Below, one piece after another: positions 16,753 through 17,068 of a DNA stretch of 64,000 nt. The stretch comes from a virus. Below the pieces are notes generated by a model. The model ran no database searches, was not told the DNA's origin, and saw nothing but the letters and a program-made list of their open reading frames with translations. Within the stretch, counting starts at the first letter, position 1; each line of letters opens with the position of its first letter. Where the stretch lies: IMG/VR virus record IMGVR_UViG_3300045988_081484, one strand, 5' to 3'. Position numbers and translations under genes: made by a program.

Positions 16753-17068
16753 GGGGCCGTAAAGGTTTCGACGGGGCATTGAAGGATTAAAGTTCACGGG
16801 TATGCACACCGCCTTAAGGGGCAACAAAAATTAACTGACAACGATTATTTCGAGAATTATCTTGCGGCTTGAGCTAAGCTCGCCGCTTAACCCTTGAGTT
16901 TCTTTGTTTACTCTCTTAAACAAAGTGGTGGAGGTAAACCAGTACGCTTAACGGAGTGTGGTTTGTTAAAGCCTATCCTACTTAGTGGATAAAGTTTAAC
17001 TATCGTGTGAAAAGACTTTAATTATATAGGTGTTTCGGACGCGGGTTCGACTCCCGCCGGCTCCACCA
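16753..17068 (+). ncRNA. ssrA: tmRNA (ssrA): tRNA-Ala-like ends with G3-U70, internal tag ORF ending ...ENYLAA then TGA
   Basis: 5' end 'ggggccgtaaaggtttcgacggg'; 3' end 'ggacgcgggttcgactcccgccggctccacca'. The tag frame reads '...LTDNDYFENYLAA' with stop TGA at 16870-16872. Confidence 0.8.

Follow-up and report, generated by a model that had tools for sequence, protein, structure and literature searches.

Complete genes for transfer-messenger RNA (tmRNA, encoded by ssrA) are known from virulent-type phages, where they often lie beside tRNAs and other translation genes, and they are proposed to sustain the hijacked translation machinery (PMC7162821, PMC9004378). They are uncommon, as the initial annotation of the locus described here had said, and were counted in 402 of 18,146 phage genomes (2.3%; PMC9004378). 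Some huge phages (Al-Shayeb 2020) also carry SmpB (PMC7162821), and Methylophilales phage Melnitz has a permuted two-piece ssrA under a glutamine riboswitch (PMC9004378). Our literature search found no mention of tmRNA in the papers on stop-codon recoding that it retrieved. The nearest described phage to the one studied here, phAss-1, reads TAG as Gln (PMC10607447). Here we characterize a one-piece tmRNA gene in a 64,000-nt stretch of viral DNA (IMG/VR record IMGVR_UViG_3300045988_081484; the whole stretch is called the window below) and compare it with bacterial SsrA and with a 439-nt sister tmRNA that we found in phAss-1.

Like bacterial SsrA (RF00023), the window tmRNA has a tRNA-Ala-like domain with G3-U70, a T-arm and CCA, a long helix 2, a pseudoknot (PK1) before the resume codon, an A at position -4, a short tag with LAA at its end, and a helix 5 that holds the stop codon. 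Unlike bacterial SsrA, it is phage-borne with no smpB found alongside, is compact at 316 nt, and has a 3' region that could not be matched to PK2-PK4. Its resume codon is GAC (Asp) instead of the usual GCN, its tag ends in YLAA instead of ALAA, and its stop is UGA. The two-piece gene of Melnitz and the SmpB of some huge phages likewise set those systems apart from the window.

The phAss-1 tmRNA has the same GAC resume codon and a near-identical tRNA-like domain (TLD), and it has the motifs CACGGGUA, ACCGCCU, GUGGUGGAGG and ACUAUCGUGU in common with the window copy. The two phages also resemble each other in reading TAG as Gln, in carrying suppressor tRNAs and in proteins that are 32-75% identical. 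However, the phAss-1 tmRNA exceeds the window copy by 123 nt, has an additional structured insert 3' of helix 5, and lies outside the main tRNA array with a terminator-like hairpin 3' of it. Tags of the phAss type have 24 codons, start with DNSNVIVM... or DIDHTVIM..., end in ...VRQAA and use a UAA stop.

We consider it likely that the window locus is a functional, phage-encoded, one-piece tmRNA (ssrA) belonging to a lineage of human-gut tailed phages of about 100-150 kb that read TAG as Gln. We hold its identity as a tmRNA, together with the basic mechanism, with high confidence. Phage tmRNAs as such are already known; new here are the overlooked lineage and a possible coupling to amber suppression.

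Identification of the tmRNA gene

ARAGORN called a one-piece tmRNA of 316 nt at 16753..17068 on the + strand, with an encoded CCA end and the tag peptide DNDYFENYLAA* read from positions 85..120 of the gene. Rfam matched RF00023 over the identical 316 nt (model positions 1-374) and scored it at 113.3 bits (gathering score 47; E = 1.7e-43), so that the covariance score was above the curated threshold over the full length and ARAGORN was concordant with it. With two independent models in agreement and 18 related copies elsewhere, the call is far beyond chance.

These results bear out the phage tmRNA that the initial annotation had placed at 16753-17068, and the ARAGORN run that it had proposed as a check returned exactly those coordinates and that tag. 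Direct reading of the sequence confirmed the tRNA-Ala-like acceptor with G3-U70, located the quoted 3' end GGACGCGGGTTCGACTCCCGCCGGCTCCACCA at 17037-17068 and placed the TGA stop of the tag at 16870-16872, as claimed. The gene was also rightly described as phage-encoded: in-frame TAGs occur in tail-fibre-like genes and a lysin of the window, and the relatives are viral contigs of 93-149 kb. It is a complete phage gene and not an attachment-site fragment, being full length and flanked by phage tRNAs and open reading frames (ORFs) that are conserved in relatives.

Distribution of related copies

We scanned IMG/VR, public metagenomes and a set of 185,579 species genomes by sequence pattern and found ten more copies of the 316-nt type (the short type), on human-gut phage contigs, and all ten were at the same position of the same tRNA array. 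Four of these contigs were 105-149 kb long and six were fragments of 2-12 kb. The 439-nt type (the long or phAss type) was found in phAss-1 and in seven related contigs (L002, L003, L004, L007, L013, L015 and L019), with Rfam scores of 76-82 bits. This gave totals of 11 short-type copies, the window included, and 8 long-type copies, from viral or metagenome contigs of 93-149 kb and from shorter fragments, and the tmRNA was always internal to its contig. The order tRNA-Phe(GAA), tmRNA, tRNA-Arg(ACG) was kept in all short-type relatives.

Among 50,697 phage records, just phAss-1 (human gut, NCBI 'code 15 clade') matched beyond the last 45 nt of the window tmRNA; the other matches were attachment-site fragments of host ssrA covering the last ~45 nt. 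DNA and GyrB-protein searches of the same records found nothing above 35% identity besides phAss-1 at the tmRNA and one tRNA. The window and phAss-1 groups are distant from each other, with identities of 69% for nicotinamide phosphoribosyltransferase, 44% for NAD synthase and 32% for DNA ligase. The phAss-1 tmRNA had no ARAGORN call, is absent from the GenBank record and is not mentioned in the phAss-1 paper (PMC10607447), so current annotation misses such tmRNAs.

The helix-2/PK1 signature had a sole match in the 185,579 species genomes, a 149-kb phage contig in a metagenome-assembled genome (MAG) of an uncultured Oscillospiraceae. The window tmRNA is therefore not a recent copy of a sequenced bacterial ssrA that shares this signature. 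The same single scan yielded no bacterial donor or host tmRNA with which the tag might be compared to read off the host lineage, as the initial annotation had proposed. Phage EF1 of Enterococcus and OQ326496, a phage of Enterocloster, which have been named as relatives in the wider group (PMC10607447), are cultured and non-recoded, and neither had a tmRNA or a suppressor tRNA. Phage EF1 carries two tandem group I introns (RF00028; L026 27302..27874).

Secondary structure

We built an 86-pair model made up of the acceptor stem, helix 2, PK1, helix 5, three 3' domains and the T-arm, and evaluated it on 6 distinct short-type sequences (Table 1). In this model 97.9% of 512 pair cells were paired, compared with 39-53% when the partners were slid. 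Within the short type, PK1 stem 2 and the first 3' stem each had one compensatory pair, and 11 changes were one-sided and wobble-compatible. Between the short and the 439-nt type, the shared helices were all fully paired in both. The acceptor stem and helix 2 together had 4 compensatory pairs; stem 2 of PK1, the first 3' stem and the last of the domains were rewritten yet still paired. These compensatory changes support the predicted acceptor stem, helix 2, PK1 and first 3' domain. The TLD, helix 2, PK1 and tag region also aligned with the RF00023 consensus at high posterior probability.

Table 1. Positions of the tmRNA parts and associated features (window coordinates except in the last row)
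Feature	Position	Strand	Details
Acceptor stem, 5' strand	16753..16759	+	GGGGCCG, from sequence; G3 (16755) pairs with U at 17062 (G3-U70, alanine identity pair)
Helix 2, 5' strand	16772..16797	+	pairs with 17005..17037
PK1	16798..16823	+	stem 1 GGGU/GCCU; stem 2 UGC-C/GGCA with one bulged A; high Rfam posterior probability
Tag ORF	16837..16872	+	GAC AAC GAT TAT TTC GAG AAT TAT CTT GCG GCT TGA; (A)DNDYFENYLAA*
Helix 5 hairpin	16864..16886	+	GCGGC-UU-GAGC-UAA-GCUC-GCCGC; encloses the stop codon
First 3' domain	16891..16934	+	9-bp stem CUUUGUUUA/UAAACAAAG; pseudoknot-capable
Second and third 3' domains	16936..17000	+	AACC/GGUU with inner hairpin; GUUAAA/UUUAAC closing hairpin UAUCC/GGAUA
Helix 2, 3' strand	17005..17037	+	pairing kept in short-type copies and in the phAss-type comparison
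T-arm	17041..17057	+	GCGGG, loop UUCGACU, CCCGC; invariant in all copies; Rfam consensus at top posterior probability
Acceptor stem, 3' strand	17058..17068	+	CGGCUCC (CGGCTCC at 17058-17064), discriminator A, CCA; from sequence
tRNA array holding the tmRNA	10181..28613	+	same strand; 31 tRNAs by ARAGORN and 2 by Rfam alone (~33)
Amber suppressor tRNA	27479..27554	+	anticodon CTA; ARAGORN (labelled 'Pyl') and Rfam
phAss-1 439-nt tmRNA	OQ749652.1 92139..92577 (= L001 8001..8439)	minus	Rfam

The TLD was invariant across copies except for one compensatory pair. All 7 acceptor pairs were kept in the 6 distinct short-type copies, and pair 4 was G-C in the window and C-G in the phAss type, a compensatory change. 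The 22 pairs of helix 2 were formed in 100% of the 6 sequences; 4 of them had wobble-compatible changes and 3 were compensatory against the phAss type. Stem 1 of PK1 was invariant. In PK1 stem 2, C55-G68 was replaced by U-A in two relatives (L010 and L020) and a C-G pair by G-C in a third (L006), and the phAss type had a different 6-bp stem, UGAACA/UGUUCA, at the same place. Helix 5 (9 pairs) was paired in 98% of cells, with two pairs changed from G-C to G-U and the loop from UAA to UUU.

In the region 3' of helix 5, which has three compact helical domains, the Rfam posterior probability was low. The loop CUCU of the first 3' domain, or CCUU upstream, can pair with the invariant GGAG of GUGGUGGAGG. 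The stem of this domain had a compensatory G-C to A-U change in L010, and the phAss type had CUUGCAU/AUGCAAG there, again with GUGGUGGAGG after it. The second and third 3' domains can be drawn either as pseudoknots or as plain hairpins, and RNAalifold and the manual pseudoknot drawing differed here; their phAss-type counterparts were GUUUG/CAAAC and CUUCGU/ACGAAG. In an attempt at a clean PK2-PK4 drawing, the pseudoknot model fitted, but RNAalifold picked other partners for these strands.

The initial annotation had made the folding of PK1-PK4 a test of the gene. PK1 folds, but the PK2-PK4 layout was not established, and the test was too strict given that tmRNA can do without PK2-PK4 in vitro and that these pseudoknots differ from lineage to lineage (PMC3985003). 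For the same reasons the ambiguous PK2-PK4 is not evidence against function.

A 10-bp hairpin, ACCCCTTTTG...CAAGAGGGGT, was present at 16715..16747 and ended 5 nt upstream of the tmRNA 5' end. At the site just 5' of the tmRNA, the hairpin of L010 and L020 is another one, GACCCTCTAT...ATAGAGGGTC, and that of L006 differs again. The window hairpin may be a processing or transcription signal.

Tag reading frame

The resume codon GAC (16837-16839) fell on the consensus resume codon in the Rfam alignment. Its context, AAAAAUUAACU|GAC, has an A at -4 that was kept in both the short and the phAss types, and positions -6 to +1 are known to set the tag frame (PMC3985003). The resume-codon context that the initial annotation had named as its other test was thus present. 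From here 11 codons ending in LAA lead to UGA, and the stop codon lies inside helix 5.

The short-type tag variants were DNAYFENHLAA, DNDYFENHLAA and DNDYFENYFAA; the frame was always open and the ...AA-stop ending was kept. In the long type nearly all variation was in the 5' part of the ORF, and the frame was open to ...VRQAA*. The conservation of the tag ORF across these diverged relatives shows apparent selection on the reading frame. The ...YLAA ending, called a conserved degron beforehand, fared less evenly: the LAA C-terminus was kept in most variants, but the window has NYLAA where ALAA is the commoner form, and one relative has FAA.

Past the TGA, the tag frame runs on at 16873..16890 through GCT AAG CTC GCC GCT TAA (AKLAA*), that is, five sense codons and a stop. 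We rejected this second LAA ending as a selected feature: L010 and L020 read ALLVA* at this place, and TGA is a real stop in the phage genes. The second 'AA' arises because the helix 5 3' strand complements GCGGC. In the alignment, the downstream TAA matches the stop codon at which the longer phAss-type tag ends and so may be the ancestral tag end, and the AKLAA extension may be a remnant of a longer ancestral tag.

Recoding and the tRNA array

Nearly all window genes were on the + strand. When TAG was read as sense, the window held 80 tightly packed + strand genes, 59 of which ended in TAA, 21 in TGA and none in TAG. Several genes had in-frame TAGs: the lysin (49604..51013; Phage_lysozyme2, Amidase_2 and weak SLH domains) had 9, a GIY-YIG gene (58248..59159) had 8, and four tail-fibre-like Mtd_N genes (21825..26026) had 2-5 each. 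TAG was aligned to CAA/CAG in relatives at 14 of 20 substituted sites, and we therefore take TAG to be read as Gln. As expected for code 15, the window has TAGs within its late genes and a tRNA for amber suppression, and TAG stands in for Gln codons. When TGA was read as sense, ORFs gained just a few codons. That TGA is a functional stop had earlier been taken as confirmed by the tag; the claim stands through the 21 TGA-ended genes, but the tag alone is no proof, as that argument is circular.

The suppressor tRNA had its acceptor stem (positions 2-6) and discriminator G in common with the phage tRNA-Gln(UUG), with a U1-U72 mismatch, and its anticodon arm and T-arm were closer to the phage tRNA-Trp(CCA). 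No sigma-70-like promoter was found just upstream of the tmRNA on the + strand, where promoter-like matches were as many as in shuffled sequence, and no terminator-like site was found directly downstream of the window tmRNA. The tmRNA is therefore probably co-transcribed with the tRNA array.

The two tRNAs found by Rfam alone (19623..19739 and 19930..20014) were missed by default ARAGORN. The first, a tRNA-like gene of 117 nt whose anticodon region has an insertion of ~42 nt, is conserved in relatives (e.g. L005 4894..5010, L006 5340..5458); the second encodes a class II tRNA that has the anticodon GTA (Tyr). One subclade of the relatives differed at the tRNA-Gln genes: a ROOL RNA (RF03087, 334-350 bits) lay between the two (L006 4478..5073, L012 3941..4536 on the minus strand, L018 4581..5167). 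The corresponding tRNA-Gln genes of the window are adjacent (19302..19453), without ROOL.

Partner proteins and proposed mechanism

Pfam searches found no SmpB, release factor or aminoacyl-tRNA synthetase among the 40 window proteins. Searches by tblastn with SmpB and RF1 GGQ-region queries (approximate sequences) gave no match in the window or in the complete phAss-1 genome. With no SmpB found in either, the tmRNA presumably works with host SmpB. Host AlaRS, EF-Tu and RNase P are presumably used too, which would fit the near-consensus TLD.

An ORF of 150 aa (17352..17804) lies directly 3' of the tmRNA and was 76-99% identical in all short-type relatives covering the locus. We considered it as a candidate SmpB and rejected it: the size is right, but it had no Pfam hit at 1e-3 and has a CYTH-like EIERKW motif. 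The protein starts MEIERKW and has a ...YAEIEFE... motif; we take these motifs to resemble those of CYTH/triphosphate-tunnel enzymes.

By analogy with bacterial SsrA, we infer trans-translation by the window tmRNA, with SmpB, alanylation and tagging. Host RNase P and 3' nucleases would trim the transcript, host AlaRS would charge it with alanine, and host SmpB and EF-Tu would deliver the alanyl-tmRNA to ribosomes stuck at the 3' end of stop-less mRNAs. The nascent chain would gain A-DNDYFENYLAA and terminate at UGA via RF2. The ribosome would be freed and the tagged product marked for ClpXP-type proteolysis. The benefit would be that ribosomes stay available as infection raises the number of non-stop complexes.

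One source of such complexes could be the phage amber suppressor itself, through read-through of TAG-terminated host messages to their 3' ends; phage genes, which end in TAA or TGA only, would be spared. That nonsense suppressors generate trans-translation substrates by read-through is established (Ueda 2002, cited in PMC3985003). We put forward tentatively, as a proposal that is more doubtful than the tmRNA assignment by a wide measure, that the tmRNA clears the non-stop ribosomes made by amber read-through of host genes. The broader proposal, that tmRNA and amber suppressor are functional partners in this code-15 gut phage clade and that the tmRNA destroys the extended host products, is slightly more doubtful again.

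Several observations weigh against a functional phage tmRNA coupled to suppression. An SmpB could be encoded in the part of the phage genome outside the window. In the tag, 3 of 3 short-type changes were non-synonymous, so the peptide itself shows no direct sign of purifying selection. Variation within the short type was small (96% mean column identity), so covariation statistics are weak alone, and the comparison with the long type weighs more for this reason; a few variants also break proposed pairs. The 3' region could not be matched with confidence to PK2-PK4, and the drawing and RNAalifold disagreed in 2 of 3 domains. For the suppressor link, the comparison sets two recoded lineages against two that are not recoded, and the size of the tRNA array is a confounder, so that the link is a lead and not a result. 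Many non-recoded phages carry tmRNAs too (PMC9004378).

The conserved ribosome-rescue RNA joins the other translation genes of recoded gut phages, namely near-complete tRNA sets, a suppressor tRNA and tRNA-repair enzymes. If the suppressor link were true, it would explain how TAG reading is switched without jamming the ribosome pool, and ribosome rescue would be a built-in component of viral genetic-code switching. The peptide signature ...ADNDYFENYLAA could then be searched for in gut metaproteomes, catching uncultured phages in action.

Alternative functions

The alternative that survives best is a counter-defence role, in which the tmRNA would rescue ribosomes on mRNAs or tRNAs cut by abortive-infection nucleases (e.g. 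mRNA interferases or anticodon nucleases) alongside phage RNA repair. tmRNA does act on cleaved, stop-less messages (PMC3985003), and the window encodes an RNA ligase (37128..37856), a Thg1-like tRNA 5'-repair enzyme (43466..44320), two metallophosphoesterases and an RNase T-like exonuclease together with a near-complete tRNA set. The association is purely contextual, however, with the repair genes 18-27 kb from the tmRNA, and we regard this role as unlikely, if compatible with the general rescue function proposed above.

The initial annotation had suggested that the tmRNA may rescue ribosomes stalled at TAG before the suppressor accumulates, which we take to mean the in-frame TAGs of phage late genes. 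The gene order would suit this, with the main array and its tmRNA (10181..21281) upstream of the TAG-rich tail-fibre genes (21559..26026) and the suppressor (27479) after them, and ribosomes of E. coli lacking RF1 do stall at UAG and have their products tagged by tmRNA (PMC6207430). However, such stalling and tagging are documented in RF1-lacking cells only (PMC6207430), and RF1 loss is not suggested here: neither the window nor phAss-1 yielded an inhibitor of RF1 or a release factor. With RF1 present and active, UAG is a stop at which the truncated protein is released without stalling, and tmRNA requires an empty A site or one with cleaved mRNA. Tagging at in-frame TAGs would also be a cost, because it would send phage tail-fibre and lysis proteins, products of the late genes, to proteolysis. 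We therefore did not retain this suggestion, which appears improbable; rescue after suppressor read-through of host genes is the better-grounded of the two.

It is equally improbable that the tag serves mainly to direct host proteins to proteolysis and so to recycle amino acids, a role suggested for Melnitz (PMC9004378). The tag does keep an LAA degron ending, but tmRNA cannot choose its substrates and tags stalled nascent chains only, and with QAA in the phAss type and FAA in one short variant the degron is not strictly kept.

Finally, that the tmRNA is a non-functional passenger or decaying relic acquired with tRNA genes, an attachment-site fragment or bacterial contamination is very improbable, for although many phage matches to its 3' 45 nt are attachment-site fragments of host ssrA and one relative was binned into a bacterial MAG, the gene matches over its full length with 113 bits, occupies a fixed position of the tRNA array in the interior of phage contigs, has kept its frame and shows compensatory changes between lineages whose proteins are just 32-75% identical, and the MAG contig has the same phage tRNA array and tail-fibre genes.

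Neighbouring genes

An RNA-repair and tRNA-related cluster at 33870..44320 is interleaved with a complete-looking NAD salvage set, and none of these genes had an in-frame TAG. The repair group comprises the RNase T-like exonuclease, the RNA ligase, a YqeY/GatB-like protein, the Thg1-like enzyme and the two metallophosphoesterases. The NAD salvage group comprises a nicotinamidase-like isochorismatase, a PRPP synthetase, NAPRTase and NAD synthase. The region 28857..33230 includes an 813-aa protein with major-vault-protein domains (MVP_shoulder, 6e-18; Vault_3, 6e-08), which adjoins a 506-aa DUF2828/DUF7788 protein, an unusual pair for a phage.

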